Assembly (NCBI GenBank): GCA_973895155.1
Contig: OZ316893.1
Location: forward strand, 806,860 to 870,859
Direction of reading: 5' to 3'
Length of the DNA stretch: 64,000 bases
From: Marsupella aquatica
Taxonomy: Eukaryota > Plantae > Marchantiophyta
In this document: one piece after another, positions 24,040-60,663 of the stretch
Numbering within the stretch: position 1 is the first letter of the stretch
How the letters are laid out: every line of letters begins with the position of its first letter
Notes under the pieces: model-generated
Told to the model about the DNA's origin: nothing
Seen by the model: only the letters and a program-made list of their open reading frames with translations
Databases searched by the model: none
Made by a program: the position numbers and the translations under genes

Positions 24040-24560
24040 ATGAGCCTAAGATTGACAAATTTTTTCAAGTTTCAAATGAGTTTTTGAATTTCTTTGCCTT
24101 TCCAATGAGTGTGAGTCTAGGAAATTTAGATTATGAGTTCATGAATTCTTTTAGCTTTCCAATATTGAGTCCGTCATTGACAAATTCCATGTCAGATTTT
24201 GTCACGGTACTAAAGAGATCATGAGGTTTTCAATCTCTAGCTTTCTATTGTGTGACATTGATATTATTCGTCAAGAATTAGAGAGATCATGAATATCTGA
24301 ATTTCTCTAGCTTTCCAATGAACCTAACATTGATAGATTTTGCAGGTACTATGGAGATGATGAGTTTTAATTTTACTTTAGTTTTCCAATGAGTGTGACA
24401 TTGAGAGATTTTATCAAGAGAATACTAAAGAGGTCACTAATTTCTCAATCTTGATCTTGAGTTTTCCAATGAATCAAACATTGACAAATTTTATCAAGTA
24501 CTAAGGAGATTGATTATTTAGTTTTACAATGTGAAACCAAAGGGGTTTTAATTATGTACA
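24040..24560. repeat. Degenerate ~70 bp tandem repeat array
   Basis: Unit approx. TTTCTAGCTTTCCAATGAGTGTGACATTGACAAATTTTGTCAAGTACTAAAGAGATCATGAG; the CTTTCCAAT-like core recurs near 24098, 24155, 24241, 24311, 24382 and 24462. Confidence 0.75.
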
Positions 24561-24578: not shown

Positions 24579-24910
24579 TGTTGAACTAAGATGTCATTCG
24601 CAACGACCATACAACCATGACTCATTCCATGCACACGTAGTCGACACAATCTCTACGTGGTTCACCTCTTCTCCAAGGCTACGTCCACACGAACACTCAA
24701 GCTTTACTTCAAGAGTAGACGAACACACATCCTCTCCCTCTTCCTCAAGTTGCTCTATTACAATCAGTAAGCACCACACACCAGCGGCTTACACTAGCCC
24801 TAGTATATACAAGGTCACACACGACTAATCTAACCTTAGCTAAGATCCTAACTGTGGTTAGCCTAAGTGCCGTAACCTATGAGTCACAAGACTAAGAGCA
24901 ATCCTTAACA
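24579..24910 (-). mobile_element. Solo LTR (Copia family related to the LTR at 35482-35830)
   Basis: TG...CA ends (TGTTGAAC/CCTTAACA), GTTTT TSD on both sides; closely similar inverted copy at 60330-60663. Confidence 0.9.
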
Positions 24911-26784: not shown

Positions 26785-29640
26785 CTAATCCAAAGGGACC
26801 GCTTCCCCTTCCTCGGTTCCGGAAGTCCCTGTTGTCAATTCTGGAACAATTGTGGCATCGTCAACCATGCTATCCTCTCCGGCCTGAGGAATGTCTTCCT
26901 CACTCTCCTCATCTGTCTCCCCCTGTCTGTCTTCCTCTTCAATGTTATCTGCAAGGTTAAGAATCCTCCCTTTCAACACACTGCTCTGTCGCTCGTCAAT
27001 CTCAATAGCAACGCAATGTCTCCCCATGGCCAAGGAGGAGGTTGTCCCAGTCCCTGATCCTGAACAAATATCCAAAACCCAGTCTCCAACCTGACTAAAA
27101 TGACTCACTTCCCAATCTAACAATGCACATGGTTTCTGATAGACATTCACTACCTTGTTATCCCCGGTGTGTTTCAGCTTCTTAGTCACAGCTGCGCATA
27201 CAACCACATTGTTCCTGGATTCATTTGTGTCAAAATTGAAGTGCTCCAATGACCGTTTACCATCTTGGCTGTGAAAGCCAATTGTAAAGCACTCAAAGTT
27301 GCTTTTCAATCTTGGCCCACCAGCATTCTTCACATTATCCTTAACCCTGAAAAGTCACAAAAAGTCAAGGAGTCATTTAAACTTAGAAACATGGTTCATG
27401 AAATCATGAACAACTAATAATTGTTTTTTTCAAAAACAAATATTTCTTACCACAGACAATTCTGGAACCCTCCATTACACTCCACTTTCAAAACGGTCTT
27501 GATGGCCTCATATTGGTCAAGGCTGTGGTGAATGATAATACGCCACAACTTTGCGGCTAGTAGCCACCTTGAAAGATTGGACCATTTTTGTGATCTCCTC
27601 AATTCCCCATCCAATAGTGTCCTCATGAAGACATCCAGGCAATGCAAATCCGTAGGGAATATCCACTAAAGCTAATGTGTAAGCCCAACCCGGAACCACC
27701 TCGTGTAATCGCTGAGCATCATGAGTAAAAATATCATAGTGCACGTCACCAAACTCTAGATGCTCAAAAGAATTTGGATGAAGTTCCCCCTCTTGGGTTT
27801 GCTGACTAGAAGTCTTCATGGATAGCCAATTTTGCGCTTGCACAATATGCGCATTGAATTTGTCCGGGAATGACTTGAGATCTTTGCCTTCCTCATCTCC
27901 CTTCTTTTTCCGGGAGGTGGTATCTTTCTACAAAAGGGAACCTTACAATTAGAAACAAGGATTCCAAATATTCAATGAATTCAAACAATCATTTGAAGAA
28001 AGGTGACAGAATCTTACCCATGTCTGGAAAACAGGTACGAAATTCTTAAGCACATTGTCCGTGCAATGCTCAGGGTACTTGGTTTTACAACCTGACCAAC
28101 TCTCCTCGTGTAAACATGTGAGGAAGGCCTTCTGCACCTGCATCTGAAATCTGTGTCAAGTAAATTTGTGACCCATTTCCTGTAAAGAGAGACTTTCTTT
28201 AGTAAGAACTCTCTGTAACACTGGGCAAATCATATCAGGATCTTTCAAGGCCTGCATGTGTCTCCACTCTGTTAATTTCATGTCCTCATAAGGCAATTTG
28301 GCATCTCCAGACTTAGAGACTTTCTTCTTGCCCTTATCTCCTTTTTGACCTTTGATCTCACACATCTCCCACTTGTCACAAATCTGCGTCACAAATGACC
28401 ACATAGGATCTTGTTGGAATGCCAACTCAAATAGGTTATCGTTGGCATTAAGAACCTCAACATCCTTTCGCACACCCCAATCCTTGAGATTGATTTTAGT
28501 AGCACACTCTTTCTTGAAATCCTGGTTGGACGACAATCCATTCTCCACAAATCTCATGTGAATATAATTTACTCTCTGGATTGTCGTCATCTGTTGTCAA
28601 AATTCAGAATCAATATTGTGACTCCACGCCAGGTTTCTTGCCTTTTGCACACTCAATCCCGCAAATATCCAAGATTGCACTCTCTGAAATGCCTTGTTGT
28701 TAGGGAACTGAAGAGCAAGGTCTGCTTTGGCACAGGCTGAATGGTTGCCCCCAATCACATAATAATGGTAATCAGATTTCCTTGAAAAATCAAAGTCTTG
28801 CCTAGTAGCACACTCCTTCGGATCCACCAAGAGGACAAACGGAGCTGCAAGTGGACTGGCACCTACAGTCTTCATCCGCAAGGTCAATTGGGTCAAGAAA
28901 TATGGTTGGATGTGTTGAACCTGGTAAATGGGCAAGCCCACAGCCTTCTCTCTCACTAGAGGGTAAAGTTGACCAATGTCAACCGTCACGGTCTCCTCTT
29001 GAACACCACATCTTCCCAGAATCTCCTCCTGGTACAATACTCGTGCATCCATTGACATTGATTGAGCCTTTTACTCCAAATGCATCGGAATTTTCTCCAA
29101 AGTCTTCTTTTTTGACTTTGGAGCACTGGGCTCGGCAGGCTCAGGAGTCATAGCAGGTCGCTTCTTTGAAGAAGTGCAAGTTCCAGTCGTACCTTGTGCC
29201 AACCCACCACTCAAAGCCATTCCCTAGGATGATCTACCAACTTGAGATCCCCCTCCAGATGCTGCTGCTTCACGGGAGGTTGTAGGCGCTACCACGGTCA
29301 AAATGTCATCGGGTAAAATGCTAGGCCTGGATCCAGAAGGAACACCGGAAGCCCTAGATTTGGGTGGACGACTTACCCCCTTCTTTGCCGATCTTTTTTG
29401 GAGAATCTCTCGCAATTTTTGGATTGCACTCTTTAAAGTGCTAGCATGAAATTCGAACACAAAACCAGAAATCTTTCCCGCGACGTCGTGGTAATGTTCC
29501 TCACTCAAAAGAGACTTGAGAGTCTCAATGATGCTATCGATGTCCTCATCGAGATAGCAGGTGGCAGCCATTCCGGAAAACCTCTCCACATCCACGACAA
29601 TCAAAGTTGACGTTTCCTTCGTTGTGATCAACATGTTCAC
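26785..29640 (-). pseudogene. ParB-like domain plus beta-class amino-DNA (N6-adenine/N4-cytosine) methyltransferase fusion; introns 27928-28017 and 27347-27450
   Basis: YYVIGGNHS (ParB/Srx-like motif), ALVDIPYG (motif IV, DPPY-like), YQKPCALL (motif X), GDWVLDICSGSGT..AMGRHCVAIEID (motif I), in beta order. Two GT-AG introns restore the frame (QTW|KDT; CLW|VKD). Four in-frame stops and one frameshift (~27550). The true start may lie further upstream. Confidence 0.85.
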
Positions 29641-30016
29641 AACTTTGTCGCCCCGTCAAAATACATCAATATGGGCGTAATTGACCCACCCTAATGCCCC
29701 CGATGGAAGCCCTTCAAATACACACAGCATTAGGAAGGGCTTCTTCCATGTTTCCATCCCTAAGGAAATTGTCCAGGATGAGTTGTGGAAGTCCGTCAAA
29801 GGATGGCGCGAAAAGATGTCATCCACCAGCTCTTCCTACGACATTGTCATGTTTCCCCCTGATCTTTAAAACCTGAGAACATACCACAAAATCAGTCCAC
29901 TTCAACCCCAACCTGCGAGACAAAGTGCCATAGAACCAAAGAATGTGCCAACAAATGGCTACTAAAGCCGTGTCCTTACGGATCTAACAACGCTCTCGGC
30001 CACCCCAGGACTCCTA

Positions 30017-30631: not shown

Positions 30632-33600
30632 ATGGCGGCATGTTGCAAATCAGATGATTATTCAGATGGAGTTTTTGATGATGTTTCATTGCCAGATGGC
30701 CCCTACACAGTGGTTGGCCCAGATATCCCTGGAATAACTACTATTTTAGATATGCCACCCCCCCACCCCTATGAGCAAGTTAAAATGTACTCCTTTACGA
30801 CTTGCAATTAGTGGGAAGAAATCATTGGTCGGTGGTAAGGAGAGGTCAGGGAGCTCCTTTGACTCCTTGGAGAGTATCGGTCCCCGTGGATGTCAAGTTG
30901 TGTCTCCTTTGTCACCAACAAAGGACAAATTGGGTAGTAATGTGGAAGGTTCAATGTCTATTCGGATGTCTGGGAAACGGTCTCATGAATTCATGAAGAC
31001 TGGATTTGGAAAGACGAAGAAGGTCCTAAGTGGGGCAAATGACAAAGATTTTTGCAGTCTCCAAAGTGTTCAGCGGCTTAAGCAAATGCCAAAAAGTAAA
31101 ACCTTTGGTAAGCCAACGTCGGAAACATTTCACAGGAGGATGAGGGAAGAAACTAGACGACCAGTGTTATTGAAAAGTATTCCAGAAAGGAATTCTAATG
31201 TGCGTTCCTCATTGTTACCTGGGAGTCATGGTGTTGGGGCAGGGAGCGGATCAAGTCACGGAAACTCAAACAGGGAAACCAACCCTGGTGGAGAGGGCCC
31301 CTAGGAAAATATTGAAAGGGTTCCTACACGGTAATGGAGGGATTTCTGAAATACGCCCAGGTATTCCAAGGCTGCATAGAGTGAAGAAAGAGCCTCCATC
31401 TCCGAAGGCTGCAGGTCTGGAATCTCGGGATGTTCAGAAGAAAATGTTGGTGACCATTTCATCATCGAATGATAGCGAGTCCTTGGAGAGTGAGGATGAT
31501 GATGATGTTCTGGTGGCATCTAGTTGTTACAAACGTACGAGCAACGCCACTTTGTGTGAAACAAAGTTGAAAGAGGAGGATATCAAGACAACAAATAGGA
31601 AGAATTGTTGTCAGAGTCATTGTCTCCTAAGTCTATCTCCAAAAGAAATTCGTGAGGTGCGTTCTAAATTTTTGAGGCAAAAATCTCAGGATCGATCTTT
31701 ATCTTTGCAGTGGCTTATAAAGCGAGACGGAAATGAAGGAGGGAGGCAGACTATATCTTACACGTTTGGTCAAAAGAGTATTTGTCAGAAAGCTTTCAAG
31801 CTTATATTTTGCATTGGCAATCAGAGATTAAATAGAATTTTGAAATTAGACAACCAAGACTTAGGATATTCTAAACCAGTTGGACGCTCTCCATCTGTTA
31901 AAAGATTAGTCTTGGTCAGTTGGCTTAGGTAATTTTTTGAGACACGCGTGGAAACATTGCCAAATAAAGAAGTTTCACATTTACTGGATAATTATTCAAA
32001 GCTGGAGGTATGGAAGATCTACGATTCCAACTATGCCAAGATTGATGAATCATCAAAAATATCCTATCGACAATTCTTGAAAGTTTGGGTTCAAGAATTT
32101 GGTCATGTGAAGATTCCTCCAGTCAATCGATTCAGTGCTTGCGCGGATTGCGAGGAGTTCAAATCAATTCGGGACAAAGCTGTCTCAGAGACCGAAAAGA
32201 GTAAGTTACTTACAAGTTTGACAAGTTTTTTTTTCAAGAATATGGCTTAGCACATGATTTCTATTTTTTTTTAAGAAACTAACAAGTTGTTTTTCCAGGG
32301 CGAGGGGAGATTATGTTACAAAAACATAGAGACCAACAATCCAAAGAACGTGAGAAACTCGCGAAGCATCGTAAGAAATGTTTTTCAAATCCTGATAAAT
32401 ATTTGGGAGTTGTCATTGATGGGATGGATCAAAAGAAGACAAGGTTGCCTCATTGGCCGCGTCCCCCAAAACTCGGGGGGTTGACTATCAAAAATCTTAG
32501 GAACTACGTGCGATCCAAAATAGGTATTTTTGGCAGATTTTAACTAAATTTTTAAAAAGCGTAGGAGGCAAAAGAAGGTATTATAAACTCATGTTTATAG
32601 AATATTCTTTAATATATACCCTTTATAAAGTAAAATAGGTTATTAATATTGAAAATAGAGAATATTCTTGGAATATTTTCTTTATAAAATAGGTCTATTT
32701 ATATTAGGCTAGGATCGCACGTGGTACCCCAAAATATACGCTTAGTTAACCCCCCGAGCCCCAATATTGGTGGACAAAACATGTTTGATCCAAATGCACG
32801 TTGTCGGATGCCTGGTTTTCAATGGTGCACTATTTTCAAGAGTGTTTCTTAATTATCTTGTATGGCATAATGATGGAAACTTGATAGTCACAATCCTCCA
32901 AAGGGTGTTTCACGAATGGGAAGAAAAGCCTAGTGGCTTACCGCCTGTTCTCTATCTTCAACTTGATAATACCATTAGAGAAAATAAAAATAATTTACTC
33001 TTTGCCTATCTTCATATGTTGATTCGAAGAAAGGTTTTTTGGAAAATCAAACTAGGATTCTTGTTGGTTGGACACACACACGACCAAATAGATCAAATGT
33101 TCAGTCAATTTTCTAAACGACTAGCAAGGTTTAAGGCATTCACATATGAAAGCCTATGTGATATTATTTGTGAATCATATCAACCCCAACCAAATATCAC
33201 TCTTTTAAAGGAAACATATGATTTCCGTCAATATGCCTTCTCAGATCCACCTTTAGTCATTGAAAGGATTCGAAATGTTACCTTCCACCACCAGTACAAA
33301 TTTGCATTTGACAAGTTGGAAGATCAAGTTCCAACCCAAAGGGGGAAGAAGTTTTCCACGGACTCAACTTGGAAACCTGACGGAGGCATGAAATTTTTGA
33401 GGGAAGAGGAGCCAAAAAAGGTGATGGGTTGTGCTCCCGGATTACCCCTTTTCAAAAAGGGGGATAAGAACGTTACAAGGACTAAACCAAATATGCTAGT
33501 TCTTCAAGAATGACTTTGAAGGAGATGGATGATTCGTTAAATGAGATTCAAAAGGGAATACTTGCAGTTGAAACTTTATTCTCAGAAGAGGAAGTGAACT

Positions 33601-34324
33601 GGTGGAGAATGTTTTTTGAAGAGCAGCGGGAATTGAATAAATCCTTGCTCCTTGATCAAAGACCATTGATTTTCCCTTTTCAATGGCCACATTCCCAAGG
33701 GGAGATTGTTGTTGCTGCTGAAGTTCCCAGAGTCCTTGTCAATGAAGAGGAAATTGAAGAGAGAGTATACGGACCTACCAGAGATATATACTTGGGTCCT
33801 TATCGGAATCAAGGAAAGATAGATGTAGAGAAGGAGAATATGGAAGGAGATTTTTGGATCTTGAAGTCAACACTTATATTTCTGTTGTTGGAGAAGAATC
33901 GGAAACATTTTGGGTGGCCAAGGTGGAAAGAATTGACCAGCGCGACGAGTTCAACATTCCAAAAATGATTTATGTTTCATGGCATGCTGCAAAAACCGGG
34001 TCAGATCCTTGGAAAGCCAAGTACTTACCAGAAGTCTTAAACTACGAAATGAAGAAAAGTGGTCGTGGGAAAGGAACTTTGAAACCAATATGGTTTCACC
34101 AAGAGCTTGATTTATCTTCAACGACTGTTTTTGCTTACAACTTCATGTTGACAAAATCTGATACATTGTACAAAAAGATAGTAGATCGGATCAAAATACG
34201 ATTGACTGAATTTTTGGCAAAAGAGAAAGAGCAAGAACAAGAGAATGGATCAGCTAGAACCCCACTAGGAGATAAATCTAGGGATATTTCGTTTCAAGAA
34301 TTGAGGACTTCTGGATCTGAGTAA
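30632..34324 (+). pseudogene. Sola-like DDD transposase (DUF7869-like), disrupted; intron 32201-32298
   Basis: CCQSHC...ICQKAFKLIFCI, RFSACADC, IDGMDQKK, LYLQLDNTIRENKN, FLLVGHTHDQIDQMFS. The GT-AG intron restores the frame (EKR|RGEIMLQK). Several frameshifts, a stop at 31930 and a MITE insertion. TATAAATA at ~30527. Confidence 0.85.
32472..32758. mobile_element. 287 bp MITE inserted in the transposase gene
   Basis: TIR CTCGGGGGGTTGACTA / TAGTTAACCCCCCGAG; 8 bp TSD CCCCAAAA/CCCCAATA; removing it restores the in-frame HWPRPPKLVDKTC. Confidence 0.92.
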
Positions 34325-35481: not shown

Positions 35482-38400
35482 TGTTGAGCATAGACGACAT
35501 TCGCAACGACAAGCCCATGAACCATCCAACGCACAAGAGTTGACACAGAGAGATACGTGGTTCACCTCGGACACATGAGGCTATGTTCACGGGAACACAC
35601 AAGAGCTTTACTGCACTCTAGGCCGAACGGCCATACCAAACATCCATAGCGCAAGCTCTCCCTATCGCTCAACTAGCTCCGTAACAATGAGCCTAAGTTC
35701 CACCCAGGGTCTGGCATCAGCTTTGGGCTATATACACAACAGCACTACCGCTAACTTTAGCTAAGTCCTAACCCAAGTTAATCTAACTGTGGTTAGTTCA
35801 TGAGTCACAAGACTAGAGCAATATTTAACAAACTCCCCCTTGACTCTTGTCTTGGGGACTGGACTAAATGCTACCATATGGAATCCTCAACGGGAAGTTC
35901 TAGACAATCACCAAACCAAGTCTCCCCCAAAAAACCACAAGGGTTAACTAGAACTAAGCCGTAGCCAAACAGGAATGAGTAATCCATATACAAATAGTCA
36001 CACATTGCTAAATAACTCTACTTGCACTACAACTGCAAAACCTGCAAAGTAGCACGGTGTCTTGATAAACTTTCCAAATGAATCACTTTGGTAAAGGCAT
36101 CAGCGGGATTAAGTTTTCCATCAATCTTGACTAGCTCAAAAGTTTTATCAGACACTGCTTTCCTGATAAAATGGTACCTGATATCAATGTGCTTCACCCT
36201 GCTATCCATCACCTGGTTAGCAGCCAAGTGAAGAGCACTCTGACTATCACAGTTTAGAGTCATTTTGCCATGCTCTAAACCCATCTTTGCGATCAACTTG
36301 TCCAACCAAATTGCTTCCTTTGTTGCTTCTACTGCTGCAACATACTCTGCTTCTGTAGTAGACTGAGATATACACTTCTGCAAGGTAGATTTCCAACTGA
36401 TACATCCTCCTCCAAGAGTAAATACAAACCCAGTTGTAGACCTCCTTGTGTCCAGACAGCCTCCATAGTCAGAATCTACATAGCCAACTAACGTTCTATC
36501 CTGTGTTCCCTTCACATACCCGAGAATCCATTTCACAGCTTCCCAATGTATCTTCCCTGGATTTGACATGAATCTGCTAACCTTGCCCATAGATAGGGCC
36601 AACTCAGGCCTAATACAAGTCATCAAATACATCAGACTGCCTATTGCCTTCTCATAAGGAATCTTAGCCATCAGACCTTTCTCCACAGCATCTATAGGAG
36701 AGAAAGCCAATGATAACTTGAAATATGAAGCTAAAGGAATACTCACTGGCTTACAGTTTTCCATGTTGAATCGTGCAAGTACTTTTCTTGCATACTGGTC
36801 TTGACTCAAGCAGAACTGTCCAGTATCAGAGTTCCTAAAAATCTCCATCCCTAAGATCCTTTTGGCCTTACCAAGATTCTTCATCTTGAATTCAACACTC
36901 AATTTTGCCTTGAGACTGTCAACCTCAAATTGATCTTTAGCCACAATCAGCATGTCATCCACATAAATCACCATAATGATGAAACCAAATACATCATTCT
37001 TGACTGATTTCGTATACACACAAGGATCATACACCATCCTTGTAAAACCTTGAGCAAGCATGAAATCATCAAACCGCTTGTTCCACTGTCTGGGAGACTG
37101 CTTCAATCCATACAAGGACTTGAGCAATCTGCAAACTAAGTTCTCTTGGCCCTTCTTCATAAAGCCTAGTGGTTGTCTCATGAAGATCATCTCTTCCAAG
37201 TTGTCATAGAGAAAAGCAGTAACAACATCCATCTGATCCATCACCAGACCAAAAAACACAACAAACTGACACAAGATCCAAATTGTGGAATACTTAGCCA
37301 CTGGTGAAAAGACCTCATTGTAATCCACTCCTTTCTTCTGAGTGAATCCCTTGGCAACAAGCCTTGCCTTGTAGATCCTATCTCCACCCTCTGAAGGACT
37401 GTCCTTCAACTTGTAAATTCACTTGTTGTCCACCACTTGCTGACCTCTTGGATCGAAGCTCCACCAGCTCCCATGTTTTGTTGTCACTCAAAGATTGCAA
37501 CTTCCTCTGCATTGTTGCATTCCACTCATGCTTTTGCTCTGAAGCACAAGCCTCACTATACGAAGAAGGCTCTCCTTCTTCCAAGATCAAAGCCATATCA
37601 TCATCATCAGGTGCAATGTCAATATCATCTAGCTTAGATGAGTCTGCCCATTGACCATACCTGGTAGGAGCTCTAGTAGAACGACTGGAAGTTCTTCTAG
37701 TAGATGACTCAGACTGATCTGCAGTTATTGCTGGTTGAATTTGAGGTACCCAGCAACAATATGCTCCTCTTGTTCCATCGGAGGAACCAGCTCCAAGCCC
37801 GGAGCTTCTCTATCTCTCTTGTCATGAATAGCATCATGACTAATCTCCCCCTCAACCCGGTCTAGGATGAGAAATTTTCCCTTGTCAGTATGGGAGTCTT
37901 GAGAACTCTCCCCCTCCTTTGATGATCTGGATTCATTCAAAGACACATCTCTACTGACAATTAGTTTACAGGTTACTGGATCCCATAACCTATAACCCTT
38001 CACACCTTTTTGATAGCAAAAAAAATGCACTTCTTTGACTTGGACTTGAGCTTGGATCGAAGGTGGGAAGGTGTAAGCACATAAGCATCACACCCAAAAA
38101 TTCTCAGATGTGAGTAATCTGCTGGACGCCCATACCTCATTTCAAATGGCGTCTTGAATCCAATAGAACTTGATGGAGAAAAATTTACCAAATAAGCTGT
38201 AGTGTTGATAGCTTCAGTCCAAAACTCATGTGATAAGCATGATTGGCTCAACATACTCCTCAAGCGCTCCAATAGTGTTTGGTTGAGTCTCTCAGAAACA
38301 CCATTCTGTTGAGGAGTATAACTTGTTGTGAGATGGTGGGTAATCTCTTTCTCCATAGTATTCACCGTCGTCATCCGATCAAAGATATCTCACCTTATTA

Positions 38401-38915
38401 CCAGTCTTATTCTCAACTTGGGCTTTCCACTCCTTAAAAGTGGCAAAAATATCAAACTTATTGTGTAGAAAGTATATCCACACATACCTTGAGTAATCGT
38501 CTATGAACGTGACATAGTATAATCGTCCAGAATGTGAGGGAGTAGGGGCTGGACCCCACACATCATTATGTACATACTCAAATACCTCCTTGCTGGTGTG
38601 AGTTCCAACTCCAAAGGGTTTCCTGTCCTGCTTCCCAAGCACACAATGCTCACAGAATTCCAACTTACAAGATTGCAAATTAGAAAGTAATCATTTCTTC
38701 TAAAGAATAATCAAACCTTTTTCACTCATGTGGCCTAAACAAACGTGCCATAGCCGGGCCGTACCAGTTGAAACCTGAAGGACACCATTAGCATAACTCC
38801 ACTGATGGCCATTTGCTTCTAAAACTCCAAGTGAAATGAGATTTTTCATCATGCTGGAAATATGTCTCACATTCCTCAACGTTCTCACAGCACCATCAAA
38901 CATCTAAAATCTAAC
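35482..38915 (-). mobile_element. 5'-truncated Ty1/Copia retrotransposon (integrase-RT-RNase H, PPT, 3' LTR 35482-35830)
   Basis: LWHVCLGHMSEKG, CEHCVLGKQ, VHNDVWGP, FIDDYSR, PQQNGVSER, then YKARLVAKGF, YVDDML, KHIDIRYHFIR in Copia order; PPT AGGGGGAGTT at 35831-35840; LTR TG...CA. No gag or 5' LTR. Confidence 0.93.
36027..37409 (-). pseudogene. Copia reverse transcriptase-RNase H segment
   Basis: 460 aa ORF with QMDVVTAFL, SLYGLKQSPRQW, YVDDML, GYVDSDY, AEYVA; frameshifted from the upstream pol. Confidence 0.92.
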
Positions 38916-39149: not shown

Positions 39150-39440
39150 TTGTATAAACATCACATTGGTACTTTTTGTCAAGTACCAATGCCAGGAAAT
39201 CATAAGTTTACTAATTTTTCTAGGTTTCCAATGAGCCTCATGTTGGCAAATTTTGTCAAATGAGTAGAGACCATGAGTTTTTCAAGTTTTCTAGCTTTCT
39301 AATGTGTGACATTGGGAGTATTTGTCAAGTACTAGAGAGATCATGAGTTTCCAAATTTTTCTAGCTTTCCAATGAACGTAACATTCAAAGAGTTTGTCAA
39401 GTACTAAGGAGATGATTGGTTTTTTAATTTCTTTAAAACA
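39150..39440. repeat. ~70 bp tandem repeat array (same family as 24040-24560)
   Basis: TAGCTTTCCAATG-like cores at ~39224, 39295 and 39365 (70 bp period). Confidence 0.75.
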
Positions 39441-39947
39441 TTGATAGACTTTGAGTGGTGGACCTTGCCACCCAGCGCTCTCACCAATCCCAACACCCTC
39501 GCCTAAGTGCCCAAACGCTTCCATGGAACTCCTTCAGCAAGTAACTTGATGCCCCTTTCACCCCCGGCGGCCATTCCCATACGAAGCCGCACTTGCTCCC
39601 TAACACGACCGTCGCTCATTGGCCCTCACTGTCTGCACAAGCAACCAAACACTCCGGTAAATAACCCAAAAGGATCTAGATGTCCCAAGTCTAGCATCCT
39701 AACTCAAGCTCAATAGATACTGATAAGTAGATCAACGATAGGTCCTCCGTGACCCGCATGGCCTTGCCATAAGCAAGAGCCAGAGCCAACACCCACTGTT
39801 TGTCCAAAGTAGCCCCTCTACGGGTGCAGCCCGTGCTCCCCCATGTAACTATCCATCACCAGCATAGTTTGTCCTAAAACGTTGGGACCAAATTGGCCCG
39901 ACTCTAGCAACCAACTCATGGTTCTTGCTCAATTGATAGCCTAGGGG

Positions 39948-40306
39948 TGTCATGCCGAGGGACAATGCCTCTTATGCACATCAGCATGTCCCTCGCATGC
40001 CCGCTAGGTATGTAGTTAGGGCTAGTGTACTACTTGAGTTAGCAACATGTTCTTATAGCAAATGTCAGGCGTTCTTGAAGCAAACGCGCTTGTTAGTGTG
40101 ACGCCAGGACTTTGTTTACTTAGGGCATGTCTTTCTTTGTAGGTTTTCAGTTCTTCTTGAATTGCTGTTGACAGAGCTCAGACAGTACTCGTCGGTTTTG
40201 TACACGGGATTCACACAGTGATTCGTTAGATGCTCCCGACCGATCTTGGCATCCTGCCAGTTTTCGATTCGATTTCAGTATAATTGTTTCTCTTACACCT
40301 TTTATT
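39948..40306 (+). repeat. Terminal repeat A1 (359 bp)
   Basis: Highly similar to 48239-48596; similarity stops after CCTTTTATT. Confidence 0.93.
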
Positions 40307-40879
40307 CAAGAAGAATTGCCAAGTTCGCGGTGAGGAGAAGAAGATAGGAGACATTCTTGTCTCAGCTGCTTAGGTCGGTACATATAATTTCCGTTGAAGC
40401 CGGTGCAATTTCTTTGAGCAACATTGGAATGGCGGGTTAAAAGTTATGGGTTTAATGTGGTGTTATGTGTATACACATAACATCCCCGTTTGAGCCCGTG
40501 CTTTTGTTCTCGGCTACCTTCGTAACCCCTTTTGCTATGTGCTGCCTTCGACTGTCACTGTCGACTGTGCATCGACTACCGACTTGCTATCGACTGCCTT
40601 TTTCTTTCGTGTTTTTGCCCCTTTCCAACGTTTCTTGTTTCCGGCCATGCACGACCACCTCTCGGCCGCCGCGCGACCACTTCCCTTCCAACCGCGCGCC
40701 CCATTTTTTGCTTTTTTGCCGTTTGCGGCCGTGGTCTCCCCTTTGCCTCCCTCCCGATCGCATAAGGCAGGCTGTGCATAGGGCATCGTGCCCTCTCGTT
40801 TATGCCAGCATTTAATTAAGGAGGAAGGGAGCTGACTAGCTGAGCACAAGTGCGAGGAGGGCCGAGCAGGCCAGCACAA

Positions 40880-41280
40880 GCAAAAGGAGGGCACGAGGCC
40901 CTAGGCAACTTTAAAGCAGAGGGGGAGGGGGAGTGCATTCAACTCCCTTCTCAGGAGTCCTCCTGCAGGGCACGAGGCCCATTTAGCAGCATTAAAGCAG
41001 GGGGAGACAGAGCCGATGCAGGTAGCAGCGCAATGAGTGGGCACGAGGCCCTATGCTGAATTAAAGAGGGGAGGGGGAGTTCACATTCGACTCCCTTCTT
41101 GGGAGGCCCACAGTGCATTAACAAGGGAGGGGAGAGTACATTGACTCCTTTCTCTGGGGAGTACTTTCACCAGGGCACGAGGCCCACAGAAGCATTTAAG
41201 GAGGAGATTGAAGGGGAGTTCGTAGCCTCCCTCTTCGGGAGCTCATAAGGAGAAGGGGGGGCACGAAGCCCTATGCAGGG
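40880..41280 (+). repeat. Array of hairpin-forming repeats in the 5' leader
   Basis: GGGCACGAGGCCC at 40889, 40968, 41039 and 41173, a variant at 41259, interleaved with GGGAGT..ACTCCC-type stems. Confidence 0.8.
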
Positions 41281-41769
41281 CCCGAGCCATTGATTGGGGC
41301 CCCATTTCTTTTCTTTCGCTGCGCCCTTGCCTCGCTTCCTCGCTTCGCCATGCCTTTTCCTCCTTAATTAAGTGCTCCACAGCCTGTACATACGTAGGGT
41401 CTCTTCGCTTTTCCCTTGTGCTTACCAGTTTCTGGGTCCACAATGGGGCCCGATGTGTATACACTTAAGGGGCCCGTATGTGTATTCACTTAAAGGGGGT
41501 CCATTTTCAGTGTATTTTTCACTGCCACCGGCATTAGGCCTTTCCGGACAATTGGTCGCCACTGGTCATCTGCATCGGGCTACGGGCCCAGGATATACAC
41601 ATGGGATGGCAACCCACATCGCCTATGTATATACATAGGCAAGCGCGATGGGGACACAATTTGAGGTTTTAAGGGTCCTTTTTCCCCAATGGTTTTTCGA
41701 CGGTGATGGGTTTTCTCAGTCTTTATACATTTTGTACATTACCTGAGTACATCGGGTACTGCCACACAA

Positions 41770-43320
41770 CATGTCAGCAGACGAGCTGGGAGGTAGCAGC
41801 TCACCGCCACCAACACCCCGGTACCACTTACAGAGTGATCCACGACCGTTGGTGCCAATTTTATTGGAGTCTCGGCCATTTTGACGACGTCAGCAGACAG
41901 CAGCAGCACCCACACCACGCAATCCTTCTACTACATTTGGCAGTCGCTTCACCACTACTCCGAAGCCTGCTATCACTTCATTGCCATTTACCCCTTCTGC
42001 ATTTGTGGTTGTTCCTGCTTCACAGACATACAGCATGGACGCCAGCCACTCATCTGGCCGCATTGAACGCTTCAGCGGGCGGCCAGGCACTGTTTCTTTG
42101 CGTGAGTTCAAATCCACTTTCTACACTGTCGTTTACGAATTGGAGTTGAAATATGGCAGCAATTTCACAAATACTTTTGCATTTAAGCAGCTAGCCAGGT
42201 ATGTGCACCATGAGGCTTTGGATGTGTATGAGCAGCACTCTCAACGGCTGCTTGCTGTCATGCAATTGCCTAACCCTACCTATGCTAGTGCAATTGCGGC
42301 AGCCTCACAATTGGCCTTACAGATGCCATTGCAGCCCATGTTGCTGCTCCTGCCACTTCCCCTCCTACTCCAGTTCCTACCACGGCGCCAGTTACTCCCA
42401 CTATCTTGGCACAGGCTACATCAGGCATTTCTCCCACCATTGATTCTCCTACCTTTGCTGATCCAGTGGCTGAGTTTTTCCAGGTTCTTGAATTGGAATT
42501 CCCAATCAAGAGTGTTGACAAAATCATGCAGTTGGCCACCTTTGTGAGGCAGCGCGATAAATCATTGAAGATGATGTATCGTCGGCTTCTCAAGCTGAAG
42601 GAGGACACCCAGAGCATCACTGACCTGGAAGCTGCTCATCGTTATCTTCGCGCATTGGAGGGCACACCAACTCTCCATTCGCAAGTCTTGCAACAAGTAT
42701 TCTCAGAGTTTGGAGATAGCTACACCCTGCTCAATGTCTATGACACTGCTGAGAAACTTGAGTTGGCCCATGCACATTATGAGACCAGTATTGCGCATCC
42801 ACCGCGATCCAGGTACCAGGCTGCTGCCCCTACATTGGCCACTCCTTCCAGTGTGCCACAGTATGGTTCCAAGACCAAGCCAGCACATGCTGCTTTCATG
42901 CTGCCATCTTGAAACTACTGTGGTAACCCCAATCACAAGGCTAATGAATGTGATATTGTTACTGAGGACCTATCTTGTGATTTTTGCGGGAAAGTGGGTC
43001 ACTTGGAGGCAGTTTGTTTTGCCAAATTCCCAGAGAGGAAGCAGCTATGACAGCAGACCCCTCATCCTACTCCTGCTTCCACTCCCGATAAAGCTAGGAG
43101 GGCTCCTACTACATCAGTTGCTCCTGGCTCTTTCCAGTGGCAAAGCACCCAGTGCTAACAAATTGCCCAAGCAGCAATAGAAGCAACCAGCTCAGAAGGA
43201 GGCTCACAATGCATAGGCAACTCAACTCCAATCTCTGACTCATGAGGTTGAGCCTTACGTGCCCAACTTGCCAACATCAAAGGCAAGTCCACTGCCTCTG
43301 TTGGTCCTTCTCAACCGGCT
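41770..43320 (+). pseudogene. gag with two CCHC zinc knuckles (frameshifted)
   Basis: IERFSGRPGTVSLREFK..., then (C>stop)NYCGNPNHKANEC and CDFCGKVGHLEAVC at ~42910-43020. Boundaries approximate. Confidence 0.75.
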
Positions 43321-43326
43321 GGTCAC

Positions 43327-44835
43327 GTGCAACCCATCCCTAGCCCAGGCACCACTGACATTTCAGCACCTCTACCTCGCTCTTTCTATGGTTTGCCATT
43401 TGATGCTCATATGGGTGAGTGTGTGGTATCCTCTACTACACAGCCTGGCCTTACAGCAGACTTTTCAGATTCATTCTGCCCTTCCTATTTTGCTTACCAA
43501 CAGGCCAGTGCTGCTTCCCGTACTGCTCCCACACGCCGCATTGTACAAGCTAATGGTCTTGCTGCTGGTCCTATGACTAGAGCCAGGAGAGCTCGGGCTG
43601 TCATGCCCCAATCTTTTCAGCCACTCACACTTGCTAAAGAGCGCACCTTGTTGGCGAAGGGGGAGGGAGTTGCAGCTACATCCATTCCACCACCAGGTGC
43701 TGCTGACATTTCACAGGGAGTTGTTTCTCCTAAGCTGCTTGAGCATTTCACCTCTGATATGGCACAAAGGATTCTTACAACTCCACTTTTTAGTTGCCAT
43801 GATTTACAACTGGATGCTAGAGCCATCATCAGAGCGCTAGAGGGTTCACTGCATTCTTCATCAGCCCTTGTGACACCAGTTTTGGAGGTCCAATCTCATG
43901 TACATACTGGACCTTCTTCTTCTCCATTGCATGCTTCCACTAGCTTGGCTATCCCAGTACCAATTTCCAGTGGTAGAGAGGACAGTATTGCTGCAGATTG
44001 TTTGACCGGAGCTACACTTGATTTTGGTCATGCTGCTCCATCTTTCCTGGCTATGCTATTGAGTGGGAAGACCGTGGACACTAACTCCCTTCACAAGGTA
44101 CCTCATCATTTGCCAAAAGTGGTGCCTAGTGACAGGACTTTAGTTTCCACCACCATTGCCATTGTTGACAACAGGAATTCAGCGGTCAAGTTGGAGGGTC
44201 ACACTCCTCAGGTGGTCATGCTAGACACAGGCGCTCAACCAGTGATATTGGGCATTCAGTTTGCCAAGAAGATGGGACTGTTGACTGATCATTTACAGCA
44301 ATCCAAGTGGCACATTCGGACTGCTAGTGGCACTGTGGAGGATGTGTTGGGTGAGAGTTCTACTTTACTCACTTTTAATGGAGGTACAGATCAGGAATTG
44401 CATTTCCCAGTCAAATGTTTGGTTACCAATGCCACTACGTATGATGTGCTCATTGGCCAGGAGGCTTTGTTCCCACCAAGTTTTACCATTGACAACTGGC
44501 ATGAGCATGCCTACTATAGAGTTGATTGGCATACGGATGGCTCACACTTGGGCTACATTCCACTTGATTTTCATGGTGCTCATACACCTATGGCTCACCA
44601 TTGTGTTTTGAAAGCAGTGCACACAGCTACCTATGTCAACCACCCATTGCAGGATTGGATTGAGGAGGATGATGTTGAGGTGGTTGCTGCACATGCTGTT
44701 GCACGTATAGCAGCACTTTCCATCAATGTGGATCATCAACCAGAGGTGGTACAATGGCTCCAAACAGCCCATGGACCTTTGGTGCTGCATTGCGCAAATT
44801 TGAGGACCTTGGGCAGCACAATGGACAACCAATAG
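43327..44835 (+). pseudogene. pol N-terminal part with aspartic protease
   Basis: VMLDTGAQPVILG (DTG active site), IRTASG, YDVLIGQE. Confidence 0.85.
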
Positions 44836-44882
44836 CCCCAATCTTGAGCGCACCAATTACATGGACTCCTCCTCCGGCTGGC

Positions 44883-45850
44883 CTTACATTGCTTGAGCTT
44901 TAATTTTTGGTGGCATTTCTACAGGCTTGGAAGCTCTCCTACAGTCCGGCATGGTGGTGAAGCAGTACATCTACATGGACATTGATCCAGGTGCAAGGCA
45001 AGTGGTTGAATCCCGTCTGCTGGAATTTTCAGAGCGATTTCCCCAGCAGTTTCCACACAGTGCATGGAAGTCTGCATTTTCTTTCTTCCCTCCAGATATC
45101 CAGCTTGTCCAGCACCGGCACTTAACCCTTCTTGGCTCCCTTGATTTGATCATAGCTGGTTGGGAATGCCAAGGGTTTTCAGCTGCTGGTCACGGTGCTG
45201 GACTGCATGATTCTCGTTCTGGCCTTTTCACAGCATTGGTTCAGGTTCTCACCTGGGCTCAAGCCCTCTACCCTGCTGTTGGTTATATCATTGAGAATAC
45301 TCCCTCTCAGTTTGACCAACGTCCACAGGTCAAAGAGGATTTCAGTGTGGTCCAACACTACTTGGGATCACCCCTTCTCATTGATGCAGTGCACTGTGGT
45401 TCTTATGCACATCGTCTTTGTAACTTTTGGACTAACCTTGCACCACCTTCCTTGCTGGAGTTAGCTCTTCACCACACATCCAGGCACACTAACCTCACAG
45501 TGGACCAGATTTTGGATCCTGACAGTTCTTGCCAACCAGTTACACGGCAAGAGCCAACACCTTGGTATCCAGCAATACCATTGGACAGCCCCGTGCTGCT
45601 TGGCCTACATTTGTATCCTTTCCAGGTGCACATGCCTTTCAGGGTGATGGTCCTGGCCTGGTTTATCGACATTCTACCGGTACTTGGGATGAACCTAGTT
45701 CTGAGGAGAGAGAACGGGCTATGGGCTTCCAATCCGGTACTACAGGCCACACCCACATCACCAGGCTGGCCATGAATGCTTTACTTGGCAGGGTAATGGA
45801 TCTTAATGCTCTCACTTGGCTTCTGGTCACTTGCATCCTTTTTCAGAGGA
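44883..45850 (+). pseudogene. DNMT3-like cytosine-C5 DNA methyltransferase domain within pol
   Basis: Motif I LLEL[5 nt insertion]FGGISTG, II MDID, IV LIIAGWECQGFS, V RSGLF, VI IIENT, VIII HRLCNFWTNL, IX ERERAMGF, X LLGRVMD; frameshift at ~45570. Confidence 0.92.
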
Positions 45851-45860
45851 ATGCATCCTT

Positions 45861-46450
45861 CCTACTGATGTTCACACTCTCAGGAGCTTTATTGGGTTGT
45901 GCAATTACTACCGGATCTACATCAAAGATTTCAGTACCATTGCACACCCATTGTACTCTTTGTTGAAAAAGAATGTGCCTTGGACATGGAGTACAAATGC
46001 TGAGGTAGCATTTGCCACTTTGAAGGAGAAGCTCTCAGAATACCCAGTGCTGAGAAGACCTGATTTCAGCAAGGTCTTTGTGCTACACACAGATTGGAGT
46101 GCCCTTGGGATTGGTGCCATTCTGGGCCAGCATGATGAGGAAGGTAAAGAGTACGTCATTGCCTATGCATCTAGGAGCAACAATCAGGCAGAGAGTCATT
46201 ATTCTTCTTATGAGGGTGAATGCCTTGCTGTTGTGTGGGCTATCATACATTACAGGCCCTACCTCTATGGGACCAGGTTTGTTCTCTACACCGACCACCA
46301 GCCCTTGAAGTGGTTGATGACCAACGACAAGCTTACTGGCAAGCTTGCTCGTTGGGCGCTCATACTCCAGGAGTATGATTTTGAGGTAATTCATAGGCCT
46401 GGTGTGACACATCAAAATGCTGACACTATATCCCGCAGCCCTTTGATTGC
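45861..46450 (+). pseudogene. RT thumb/connection and Ty3/Gypsy RNase H
   Basis: LRSFIGLCNYYRIYIKDFSTIAHPL, FVLHTDWS, YEGECLAVVWAI, YTDHQPL, LARWALILQEYDF, NADTISR. Confidence 0.93.
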
Positions 46451-46559
46451 CTCTGATGATCCCTCAGATGCACAGCAGGATTTTGACCAGGTTTCCATCC
46501 TGCCTACATTTCATGCATCTAGCTACCTATCTTGCTGTGCTGCCATGCTACATTGTTGA

Positions 46560-48021
46560 CCAACCTGTGGTGGACATATGGGAGGACAGCGACACTCTGA
46601 GATTTCTGCAGCATGGGGAGTACCCCACCCATGTTACTGCTGCCCAGAGAGACCAAATTCAGCAAAGGTCCAAGCGCTACTTGTGGAAGGGAGATCATCT
46701 TGTGCGTTGCTTGCCAGACAGGGAAGTGGTGGTTCCACCCATTCATGAGAGGGTTGGCCTTATCCGTAAGGTACATTCTGAGCTTGGTCATTTTGGTGTT
46801 AAGAGGACTTACAGCCTCTTAGTCCCCCATTATCATTGGAGAGGCATGCATGGCCAGGTTCGAGATGTTATTGCCAGGTGTGAGCAATGTGATAGGGTGA
46901 GGACTTCTTTCACATCTCGGCAACCCACACTTCATCCACTCCCTATGCAGGGCATGTTTTATCGTTGGTCATGTGATTTGGCTGGAGAATTACCCCTCAC
47001 ATCTCGGGGTAATCTCTCGGGGTATGATCATGATAGAGCATTTCTCCAAGTGGATAGAACTTGTGGCATTGCCGGATAAGACCTCCCGTAGCACCAGCCA
47101 GGCATTCCTGCAACAAGTTCTCAGCCGCTTTGGAGCTTGTGCAGAATGTCTCACTGACCAGGGCTCAGAGTTTAGAGGAGAGTTCCAGGAGCTGCTTGAT
47201 CAGGCCCTCATTGATCATCGTCGGACATCACGAGATCACCCACAGGCAGATGGCTTGGCAGAGCGCATGGTTCAAACATGCAAGAAGGGCCTTCGGAAGA
47301 TCTGCCTCACCAAAAACAAGGAGGATTGGGACCTGGCCTTACCCTACATTGCCATGGGGTATAGGATGTCTAGACATGCATCACTGTCTAACTTTTCTCC
47401 CTACTTCTTGTTGTTTGGTCGTCACCAGTTCCACCTTCTGCTATTGCTGCTCACATGCTTCAGGTGGTGGACTTGGATTCAGCTGTGACTTGGTCTGATG
47501 TGATCTCTGAGAGGGCTGGCCTATTCAGGAGGGTTATGCCCATGGCCATGGAGAATTTGGCCATTGCACAGCACAGGGACACACTGCGTTATGCACACAC
47601 ACGAGGGGGCACTTTTCAGCCCAAGGTCAGGAAGTTTGATGTGGGAGATTTTGTGTACTTGCAGCGGCAAGCTAACGACACCCTGGACACCTCTACTAGT
47701 CGTACTATTCTCAGGGTTAAAGCTATTCGACCGTCTGGAGTGCTAGAGTTACAAGGGGCAGATGGGCGCATAATTGCTGACAATGCCAAGAACTGCGCCC
47801 CTTGTCATCTGCCTAACCTGGATCCCACCATTGTGACTTCTACTTGGATTCCACCTGTGGACTACCCTTGCAAAGTGTGTTTGCGAATTGATGATGCTGA
47901 CCAGATGCTGCTGTGTGACAATTGCAATGGAGGGTACCATCTTTTCTGCCTTCGGCCTGAACTTACCCAAGTGCCAGAAGGGTTATGGTTTTGCCCTTCC
48001 TGTGCTCCACGTGCTACCTGA
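46560..48021 (+). pseudogene. DDE integrase with HHCC, GPY/F-type region and C-terminal PHD finger (frameshifted)
   Basis: HSELGH...CEQC; WSCDLAG, LTDQGSEF, GLAERMV; KFDVGDFVYL; CKVC..LLCDNCNGGYHLFC..WFCPSC (C4HC3). Confidence 0.92.
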
Positions 48022-48060
48022 ATTTTCTTCAGCCCTCCTTTTGGCTGTGGTCTGGGGGGG

Positions 48061-48772
48061 ATACAGAGGTTTACACCTCCACTACATACATACCACTTCA
48101 TTTCCTTTTTCTTGGCACTTGTGAATGTGATTGGACTTTTTCTATGCATGTTGGTTGCTAGCAGCTTGCACATATGCCTTGCCGGTGACTTATATGTTTT
48201 CGATACACTATGGCTACGATACTATATGTCACGACAGTTGTCATGCCGAGGGACAGTGCCTCTTATGCACATCGGCATGTCCCTCGCATGCCCGCTAGGT
48301 ATGTAGTTAGGGCTAGTGTACTACTTGAGTTAGCGAATGTTCTTATAGCAAATGCTAGGCGTTCTTGAAGCAAACGCGCTTGTTAGTGTGACGCCAGGAC
48401 TTTGTTTACTTAGGGCATGTCTTTCTTTGTAGGTTTTCAATTCTTCTTGAATCGCTGTTGACAGAGCTCAGACAGTGCTCGTCGGTTCTGTACACGGGAT
48501 TCACACAGTGATTCGTTAGATGCTCCCGACCGATCTTGGCATCCTGCCGGTTTTTGATTCAATTTCAGTACAATTGTTTCTCTTATGCCTTTTATTATAC
48601 AGAGGTTTACACCTCCACTACATACATACCACTTCATTTGCTTTTTCTTGGCACTTGTGAATGTGATTGGACTTTTTCTATGCATGTTGATTGCTAGCAG
48701 CTTGCACATATGCCTTGCCGATGACTTATATGTTTTCGATACACTATGGCTACGATACTATATGTCACGACA
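48061..48772 (+). repeat. B1-gt-A2-B2 right-end repeat block
   Basis: 176 bp B at 48061-48236 and 48597-48772; GT spacer 48237-48238; A2 48239-48596; G7 tract immediately before B1. Confidence 0.93.
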
Positions 48773-49549
48773 GGGGCCAAGTGCACTTGAAACTCAACCT
48801 CCATGCCTACTTGGCATTGCCTCCCTAACGAAGGCTTCTTTGGGAGATTGAAGGCGGTTTGGCTGCTATTTTGGGATGATTTGGCAAGCAGATGAGATAC
48901 ACCTCACAAACCCCAAGAATCTATGGCATCCCCAGACCCAGTTAAGCTCAAGAGTGTGTAATCCTCCTTGAGAACTTTCCAACACACCTAAGAAGTCTCC
49001 CCTTGGTGTTGCAACCGCCGCGGTTCACGACTTGGGCTCGTTCTTGGACCCCAAGCCACACGTTTGGGCACGTCACCAACTGGCTATGCTCATAATTTTC
49101 TAGTTAGGCGTCCGTAGGCAAAGTGCCTTAGCCCACTGTGATCAGACTGACCTAGTGCTCATGCCTTGGCCCTCAGAACCTATTGTCACTCACAGTCCCC
49201 GCGCGGCCACACTTGGGTTAGGCCGTATTTCATGCCTTAAGCGTTCGTTATGCATGAAGTCCGTTAGCCTTAGGCCCAAGAGGAGCTTTCACTCAAACAC
49301 TCAGAATTCAAAGTCCGTCTGGGGGGTCTGGACTATTGACCTTGAGTTCGACCCTTTCCCATGACCCGACCAACCCCAAACTAATCTAAGTCCTTAGTGT
49401 GCATCACTAGCTTAGTGCCTTGCCTTCGCTAGTGCAACGCCTCATGGCCCACATGCCTCTCCATGCTAAGTCCTCTCCAAATGGTCGTTCCAGGCTTGGA
49501 CCATAGGAGAGCTCGACGGTGACTTAAATGTTAAAGTAATCAAGTTCCA

Positions 49550-49870
49550 CAATTTTTTGTCAAATGCTAAAGAGATTATAAATTTTTAATTTTATCTAAC
49601 TTTCCAATAAGTGTGATATTGAAAGATTTTGTCAAAACAATACTAAAGAGATCATAAGTTTCTAAATCTTTCGAGCTTTCCAATGAATGTAACATTGACA
49701 AATTTCATCAAAATACTAAGAAAATTTATTATTTAGTTTTAAAGTGTGGAGCCAAAAGAGTTTTAACTATTTACATTTCTGTCAATTGATTTTTCCAAAC
49801 TTGCGAACTATTGAAAAAGACAAGTAAAATACTGATCTATCATTGACAAGATATCAGAATGATAACTTTG
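49550..49870. repeat. Continuation of the ~70 bp repeat family and its downstream flank
   Basis: Same units. 49700-49870 matches 24480-24578 plus 24916-25000, i.e. the site without the solo LTR. Confidence 0.75.
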
Positions 49871-60329: not shown

Positions 60330-60663
60330 TGTTAAGGATTGCTCTTAGTCTTGTGACTCATAGGTTACGGCACTTAGGCTAACCACAGTTAGGATCTTAG
60401 CTGAGGTTAGGTTAGTTGTGTGTGACCTTGTATATACCAGGGCTAGTGTAAGCCGCTGGTGTGTGGTGCTAACTCATTGTAACAGAGCAACAGGAGGAAG
60501 AGAGAGAGAGCATGTAAGTTCGTCTACTCTTGAAGTAAAGCTTGAGTGTTCGTGTGGACGTAGCCTTGGAGAAAAGGTGAACCACGTAGAGATTGTGTCG
60601 ACTACGTGTGCATAGAATGAATCATGGTTGTATGGTCATTGCGAATGACGTCTTAGTTCAACA
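60330..60663 (+). mobile_element. Solo LTR nested in an older related LTR (~60050-60719)
   Basis: TGTTAAGG...GTTCAACA with GTGTG TSD; the host shares GTAAAGCTCTTGTGTGTTCCCGTGAAC and GGTGAACCACGTATC motifs with the Copia LTR. Confidence 0.9.

Follow-up and report, generated by a model that had tools for sequence, protein, structure and literature searches.

A DNMT3-type methyltransferase domain in a decayed Gypsy-type retrotransposon of the liverwort Marsupella aquatica and in its bryophyte relatives

Structure of the element

The window, by which we mean the whole 64,000-nucleotide stretch of Marsupella aquatica DNA analyzed here, contains a Gypsy-type element that carries a C5 cytosine methyltransferase (DNMT) domain within its Pol region. 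Its parts are given below with position, strand, and, in brackets, the basis of each assignment.

39944..39947 (+): left 4-bp target-site duplication, GGGG (sequence)
39948..48772 (+): whole Gypsy-type element, 8,825 bp, with TG...CA ends, sitting within another repeat (repeats, empty-site joints)
39948..40306 (+): repeat A1, left end (repeat families D3 and D9)
42035..43053 (+): gag-like region with Cys/His knuckles, frameshifted (tblastn with the relative P0002 and with domain queries)
44122..44538 (+): aspartic protease, LDTG at 44221 (PF13975, E 2.3e-7)
44880..45846 (+): DNMT3-type C5 methyltransferase domain, non-permuted, in broken frames (PF00145, motifs, profile search)
45847..45860 (+): deletion junction; linker and reverse transcriptase (RT) catalytic core, about 1.1 kb, gone from the window copy (loose contig ends)
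45861..46430 (+): RT thumb/connection and RNase H (PF17917, E 2.9e-39)
46570..47860 (+): DDE integrase with H2C2 finger, core, and C-terminal part, frameshifted (PF17921 and PF00665)
47869..48003 (+): PHD finger, end of Pol (PF00628, 52 bits)
48054..48060 (+): G-run preceding B1, polypurine-tract-like, putative plus-strand primer (G-rich run before B1 in relatives)
48061..48236 (+): repeat B1, ending in CACGACA (repeat family D7)
48237..48238 (+): 2-bp spacer of an internal right-end/left-end junction, CA-GT-TG (sequence)
48239..48596 (+): repeat A2 (repeat search)
48597..48772 (+): repeat B2, right end (repeat search, ends read)
48773..48776 (+): right 4-bp target-site duplication, GGGG (sequence)

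Contigs from runs X1–X3 represent the empty site, joining 39942/39943 to 48772/48774 within the flanking repeat. Together with the repeats, these joints therefore define the length of the element, its TG...CA ends, and the GGGG target duplication. The repeats are split direct repeats in the order A-coding-B-A-B, and at the boundary between B1 and A2 the right end meets the left end in an internal copy of the end junction. The two A copies differ at 15 of 358 columns, in every case by a transition, and the two B copies at 3 of 176; the insertion is not recent. Inspection by eye revealed no obvious tRNA primer site after A1, and the gag-like region gave no Pfam gag match. Chromoviruses are plant Gypsy elements with a chromodomain at the integrase C-terminus; unlike these, the window element yielded no chromodomain match in a Pfam search and has the PHD finger in that place.

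The spacer of the internal junction (48235–48240 with its flanks) is GT in the window copy. In 11 distinct relatives (L010, L012, L015, L030, L031, L033, L039, L040, L042, L044, and L058) it is AC in 6, GT in 3, and another dinucleotide in 2. AC and GT are reverse complements, and our guess is that a mismatched end join is resolved either way.

The reading frames of the DNMT region are broken near 44900 and near 45572 and, upstream, near 44783. The break near 44900 is absent from most of the contig depth in all four runs. No depth in X3 or X4 shows the one near 45572, which is present in about half of the depth in X1 and X2. Between the end of the DNMT domain at 45846 and the beginning of the RT thumb, at 45861 in the window copy, an intact relative has 1,128 nt. 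Contigs with loose ends were found both behind 45847 and before 45860 in each of the four runs, which means that other copies carry sequence at this place. With its frame breaks, the loss of a motif-VIII arginine described below, and the deletion of its RT core, the window copy is dead and cannot be active.

The methyltransferase domain

Translation of 44700–46000 gives C5-methyltransferase motifs I to X in linear order, distributed over three frame pieces. Motif I is split by the break near 44900 (GLTLLEL at 44880–44900, FGG at 44906) and is followed by motif II (YMDID, 44972), motif III (DIQL, 45095), motif IV (DLIIAGWECQGFS, 45143–45181), motif VI (GYIIEN, 45281), motif VII (DAVHCGS, 45383), and motif VIII (AHRLCNFWTNL, 45407–45439); motif IX (EERERAMGF, 45703) and motif X (LLGRVMD, 45781) lie behind the second break, near 45572. 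Locating the motifs one by one thus confirmed the linear, non-permuted arrangement that an earlier note on this DNA had described, and the PF00145 search it had suggested detected the main frame piece with 27 bits at a cut-off of 22 (E 3.7e-6).

The same note had proposed a DNMT3-like enzyme rather than a permuted DRM, an assignment in which profile search and predicted fold agree, as both put DNMT3A first. A stretch of the unbroken relative P0003, which is 62% identical to the window piece, had DNMT3C/3A as its top match among solved structures, and a family profile of 47 sequences scored best with DNMT3A (98.7 bits), with DRM-type entries at 48–58 bits and HhaI at 38. The DRM entries matched the first part of the profile only through their C-terminal part, as expected for a permuted enzyme. 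The fold predicted for the domain of an unbroken relative (pLDDT 95.8 with the 47-sequence alignment, 33.9 from the single sequence) also matched DNMT3A best, being collinear with it from end to end (Foldseek E 4.6e-18; Z 29.8, rmsd 2.4, 269 residues aligned), with the best bacterial enzymes at Z 25–26. Identity as a DRM is ruled out by the linear motif order, since those enzymes are circularly permuted with motifs VI–X before I–V. A stand-alone, multi-exon host DNMT3 gene is likewise ruled out by the presence of an intronless domain between protease and RT/RNase H in an element with a target duplication.

Residues expected for catalysis are widely kept. In a census of diverse relatives, 148 of 150 of which were aligned, the catalytic Cys was retained in 145/146, Glu-Asn in 131, His-Arg in 131, and the second motif-VIII Arg in 139/141; the Cys, Glu-Asn, and both motif-VIII arginines are near-invariant over clusters that are less than 50% identical. 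Among 80 family loci, the Cys is present in 75, the Glu in 67, and the Asn in 77. The window domain itself keeps Cys, Glu, and Asn and has the second motif-VIII Arg replaced by Cys (HRLCN). The earlier note had taken HRLCNFWTNL as a DNMT3 resemblance, and motif VIII is indeed present, but its Cys reflects decay of this copy. Similarly, the retention of the catalytic Cys in a GWECQ motif holds, but this motif is no oddity of the window copy. Across the clade, motif IV reads WEC in 68 members, WPC in 36, FEC in 13, FPC in 5, and SPC in 5, making GWEC the commonest form; Glu replaces the canonical Pro in most members, and Pro-bearing and Glu-bearing members are mixed within the clade.

Copies, domain order, and selection

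Contigs of all four runs cover the DNMT domain, with 1,238 contigs on a 1.2-kb stretch in run X1, where contig depth is not a measure of copy number. A metagenome scan covering 43 of 64 parts confirmed 189 loci, of which the best 80 were kept, giving 60 distinct copies; these loci appear to be Sphagnum-type. The protease lies upstream of the DNMT in 44 of the 49 distinct copies with enough flank, and RT lies downstream in 43 of 47. As all loci were selected through the DNMT domain, these counts cannot show the number of DNMT-less sisters. The family order is gag-protease-DNMT-RT-RNase H-integrase-PHD, sections of which are preserved in a single frame in P0002 (gag-protease-DNMT, 1,214 aa) and P0273 (protease-DNMT-RT-RNase H-integrase, 2,327 aa). 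The location of the DNMT between protease and RT/RNase H, as first read from the window, therefore stands at the level of the family, but the window copy lacks the RT core. An RT-less, non-autonomous family as the norm was rejected in view of the prevalence of RT among the copies, the loose contig ends at the deletion junction, and the fact that no joint was listed there; rare RT-less sisters do exist (L014, L015).

Split repeats are a recurrent but not universal feature of the family. Among 15 full-length relatives, 7 have the A-coding-B-A-B layout and 8 have A-coding-B, and the 4-bp target duplication is perfect in 8, agrees at 3 of 4 bases in 5, and has no match in 2. If a two-LTR circle were cut symmetrically, at one B|A junction or the other, A-B-A-coding-B copies would be expected; none of the 26 copies with at least 600 nt upstream has B directly before A1, and this simple circle model is thus not supported. 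The relatives that have only A-coding-B (L022, L026, L045, L062, L069, L070, L072, and L073) include 7 with a 4-bp duplication at 3 or 4 bases. Such copies have no repeated ends and would escape LTR finders; recombination between B1 and B2 is one explanation for them.

A profile search, using a profile that held some protease columns, returned 327 clusters at E < 1e-30. In 154 proteins examined, the DNMT is on the protease side in 22, on the RNase H/integrase side in 85, and present as the domain alone in 45; 2 showed only a protease. In the RNase H-side proteins (e.g., P0004, P0005, and P0166) the DNMT follows RNase H and precedes the integrase, and a PHD is often present at the C-terminus. 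We found no description of this form in the literature, and its sole named cluster, 1 of 11 checked, belongs to Scenedesmus sp. PABB004.

Between the window copy and the 60 distinct loci, median dN/dS is 0.11 for the DNMT, 0.12 for the protease, and 0.07 for RNase H, ratios that are rough because synonymous divergence (dS) from the window copy is close to saturation, which 10 of the 60 DNMT pairs have reached. Among copies, the raw medians of 0.39 (DNMT) and 0.40 (RT) are as expected for decayed insertions. Variants present in at least 25% of copies give 0.19 for the DNMT (38 replacement, 62 silent), 0.28 for RT, 0.30 for RNase H, 0.27 for integrase, and 0.48 for the protease, against 0.75 for singleton variants. 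The comparison of dN/dS across copies, which the earlier note had called for, thus does not indicate neutral evolution. Within the window's own family, 37 DNMT sites occur among the 40 variant rows shown of 44; those varying among other copies comprise 15 silent and 6 replacement sites, and those classed as private to the window copy 7 silent and 9 replacement sites. In active elements, purifying selection acted on the DNMT domain as it did on RT and RNase H; the window copy has drifted since.

Comparison with known elements

KnitGypsy-Dnmt3 from the charophyte Klebsormidium nitens is described as an intronless, non-rearranged Dnmt3 in a Gypsy Pol, with DIRS-like repeats and Ka/Ks < 0.2 (de Mendoza et al. 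2018, PMC5890265). The window domain is likewise intronless, Dnmt3-type, and free of motif rearrangement, and its family has in common with KnitGypsy-Dnmt3 the location of the DNMT within a Gypsy Pol (protease, RT, RNase H, integrase; the window copy minus the RT core), conserved key catalytic residues, and purifying selection (here 0.11 against the loci and 0.19 for common variants). DIRS-like A-coding-B-A-B repeats are also common to KnitGypsy-Dnmt3, the window element, and the 7 of 15 full-length relatives mentioned above. In contrast to the algal element, the host here is a land plant (a liverwort, with relatives in Sphagnum), and motif IV is WEC in the window family and FPC in KnitGypsy-Dnmt3. 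The window element additionally has a C-terminal PHD, a 4-bp target duplication, and a CA-NN-TG junction; the main text of PMC5890265 does not use the term "PHD".

A second described element, SymbioDIRS-Dnmt3 from Symbiodinium, resembles the window element in having a Dnmt3 in Pol and A-coding-B-A-B repeats, but it encodes a tyrosine recombinase, whereas protease, DDE integrase, and target duplications are features of the window element; SymbioDIRS-Dnmt3 and KnitGypsy-Dnmt3 are treated as independent captures (PMC5890265). In its split direct repeats and internally repeated end junction, the window element recalls DIRS, PAT, and Ngaro elements in general. These have a tyrosine recombinase in place of protease and DDE integrase, and identity with any of them is ruled out by the aspartic protease, H2C2 finger, rve core, and 4-bp target duplications.

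The catalytic domains of animal DNMT3A/3B (PDB 6f57, 2qrv) and bryophyte host DNMT3 (PMC6453930) have the same linear motif order and the same fold, which is a predicted one for the family studied here. Identity to these enzymes is about 20–25%, and the window-family domain differs from them in having no PWWP/ADD, plant DUF partner, or introns, in being fused into a polyprotein, and in its Glu-Cys motif IV. Among elements with chromatin readers, the green algal, PHD-bearing Gypsy-7a_cRei has a Gag-Pol with a chromatin-reader domain, as here, and is listed with neither a DNMT nor split repeats in its description (bioRxiv 10.1101/2022.06.16.496473). EpiLTRs also combine a Gypsy Gag-Pol with a chromatin reader and a cytosine methyltransferase; however, their DNMTs are sister to DNMT4, are accompanied by a DAM domain and a chromodomain, and are set apart from streptophyte Gypsy-DNMT3 by the authors (bioRxiv 10.64898/2026.05.21.726589).

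Proposed role of the enzyme

Ty3/Gypsy Pol domains are packaged in the particle and cut apart there. Our preferred reading, to which we assign a probability of roughly 0.6, is that the window holds a decayed member of a bryophyte Gypsy family, without its RT core, and that the family's DNMT3-type enzyme is probably taken up into the particle and probably methylates newly made cDNA of the element itself. Once cut free by the protease within the virus-like particle, the DNMT domain would have no DNA in reach other than the cDNA being made. Methylation of this cDNA could make the new copy look like host chromatin or determine its state of silencing, and the PHD finger on the integrase might read histone H3 tails and steer insertion. 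A precedent for cDNA methylation is provided by two Symbiodinium DIRS Dnmt3 domains that catalyzed de novo CG methylation in yeast, whereas the Klebsormidium domain, which counts against it, gave no methylation there, a result that the authors call inconclusive (PMC5890265).

Base composition gives no sign of self-methylation. The observed/expected CpG ratio is 0.27 in the element and 0.21 in a neighboring Copia remnant at 36027–38690 (−), recognized by eye from its integrase, RT, and RNase H, which served as a DNMT-less control. CpG depletion in the element is no stronger than in this Copia and was rejected as a sign of self-methylation.

The enzyme could instead act after nuclear entry in the integration complex, where it would, together with the PHD finger, methylate the target site or the fresh insertion rather than particle cDNA. 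The PHD finger does close Pol, the DNMT adjoins the integrase in the 85 proteins of the RNase H-side form, and animal DNMT3 works with a PHD-like ADD domain. We nevertheless consider this scenario unlikely for the window family, in which RT and RNase H lie between DNMT and integrase and the protease probably frees the DNMT.

We also doubt that the domain has been retained to bind DNA or SAM as a scaffold of little catalytic output, which might shield CpG sites of the cDNA or help the unusual end junction to form. The replacement of Pro by Glu before the catalytic Cys in most members would suit such a scaffold, as would the inactivity of the Klebsormidium domain in yeast (PMC5890265) and the lack of extra CpG loss in the element. 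However, a pure scaffold would have no need of a near-invariant Cys, Glu-Asn pair, and two motif-VIII arginines, and the mixing of Pro- and Glu-bearing members within the clade also speaks against it.

Distribution and origin

The best match of the window DNMT domain is in the liverwort Calypogeia fissa (76%). Named organisms among the 120 listed of 241 matches are C. fissa (twice), Sphagnum compactum, S. magellanicum, and S. balticum, with no vascular-plant name among them; the contigs concerned are 13–67 Mb long. In the profile search, 7 of 30 clusters checked were named: Klebsormidium nitens, Mesostigma viride, and four Closterium clusters with the DNMT on the protease side, and Scenedesmus with it on the other side. 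The K. nitens protein GAQ93235, probably a member of the published KnitGypsy-Dnmt3 family, is collinear with the bryophyte gag-protease-DNMT (E 7e-48) and 34% identical over the window's domain.

In FastTree trees of a subsample, one branch separates the protease-side elements from the rest, with support of 0.99 for RT-RNase H and 0.90 for the DNMT, and distances in the two trees are correlated (Spearman 0.64, with pairs that are not independent). A larger DNMT tree (FastTree, unrooted, 73 of 155 rows, without host DNMT3) has no resolution at its base and does not group bryophytes with Klebsormidium with support. Liverwort and moss-type copies differ at saturated synonymous sites. The family is best read from these sequence comparisons as an old green-plant lineage rather than a new land-plant capture, and liverworts and mosses would have received it by descent from streptophyte algae. 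The earlier note had seen in the window a land-plant example of a DNMT-carrying retrotransposon. This is correct as to the host, but a separate land-plant event is not borne out, the split repeats and collinear gag-protease-DNMT suggesting that the lineage is the one described from Klebsormidium.

That bryophyte elements captured a host DNMT3 independently of algae, or acquired theirs by horizontal transfer, with the likeness to KnitGypsy-Dnmt3 due to convergence or recent transfer, has in our view a slim chance. Bryophytes possess host DNMT3 genes (PMC6453930), and the lack of a supported bryophyte-Klebsormidium grouping and of vascular-plant names among the listed matches would fit this explanation. 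On the other hand, the similarity to the Klebsormidium protein continues in one register from gag through the protease into the DNMT, both elements have the rare split repeats, and the top 150 profile matches are polyprotein-type domains; a recent transfer is further opposed by the synonymous saturation between liverwort and moss-type copies. Chance capture, or a neutral passenger in one copy, would agree with the broken window copy and its neutral-looking private changes (9 replacement to 7 silent), but we regard it as refuted by domain order, purifying selection, and a copy survey. The earlier note had named restriction of the domain to this copy as a sign of chance capture, but the domain recurred in 60 distinct relatives, in all runs among their contigs, and in proteins with moss, liverwort, and algal names.

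A bolder scenario, which we hold to be less likely than not, goes further. A single DNMT3 capture by a PHD-bearing Gypsy before the chlorophyte-streptophyte split could have founded a large, unnamed green-plant lineage in which the enzyme moved between two Pol slots and which reached high copy in mosses and liverworts. Its members would methylate their own cDNA, and their DDE integrase would cut the CA-NN-TG junction of joined ends instead of ordinary LTR ends.

A 2025 paper, citing the 2018 work, and a 2026 preprint place Gypsy-DNMT3 elements in "streptophytes", and the statements concerned name no land plant. Our literature search, which was thin on subscription papers and did not include Repbase or some supplements, found no land-plant report of such elements. 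What is added here is the occurrence in land plants, a conserved PHD and conserved anatomy of the end junction, and a second domain order, seen in a chlorophyte.

Implications

Plants silence transposons by cytosine methylation, so that a land-plant element keeping its own methyltransferase, predicted to be of the de novo type, under selection reverses the usual relation. In the published reports we found, the transposon-DNMT design is confined to dinoflagellates and algae. With a family that reaches high copy numbers in liverworts and peat mosses and has unbroken natural relatives, the question raised in 2018, i.e., what transposon DNMTs methylate and to whose benefit, becomes testable in land plants; the window copy itself is only a fossil. 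In addition, DNMT3 counts in bryophyte genomes can be inflated by copies of such elements, and the split repeats raise the question of how an integrase element replicates without two ordinary LTRs.

Other features of the window

A decayed gene at 26788–29655 (−) matches N6_N4_Mtase (PF01555, 32.7 bits, cut-off 26.7). It contains what we take to be a DIPY motif, at about 27520–27927, and, upstream of it, a GGNH motif that is presumably ParB-like. Head to head with this gene lies a DUF7869 gene at 31174–34321 (+; 173.6 bits), which presumably resembles a transposase. Judging by sequence, the pair may represent a liverwort DNA transposon that encodes a 4mC/6mA methyltransferase. Laterally acquired 4mC enzymes are mentioned for liverworts in a recent preprint (bioRxiv 10.64898/2026.05.21.726589).

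An intron-containing host gene at 9981–13797 (+) encodes an RBM24/38-type RRM protein, one exon of which shares 99% identity with a Calypogeia fissa protein and 83% with Marchantia. Along with the C. fissa match of the DNMT domain, this makes a leafy liverwort very likely as the host. A short, diverged gag fragment of an element related to the one described above lies at 22863–23203 (−; 67% nucleotide identity). An AT-rich repeat of about 71-nt units occurs at 24031–24510, 39189–39435, and 49556–49794, and 24579–24910 forms a 94% identical inverted pair with 60330–60663, 35 kb apart.
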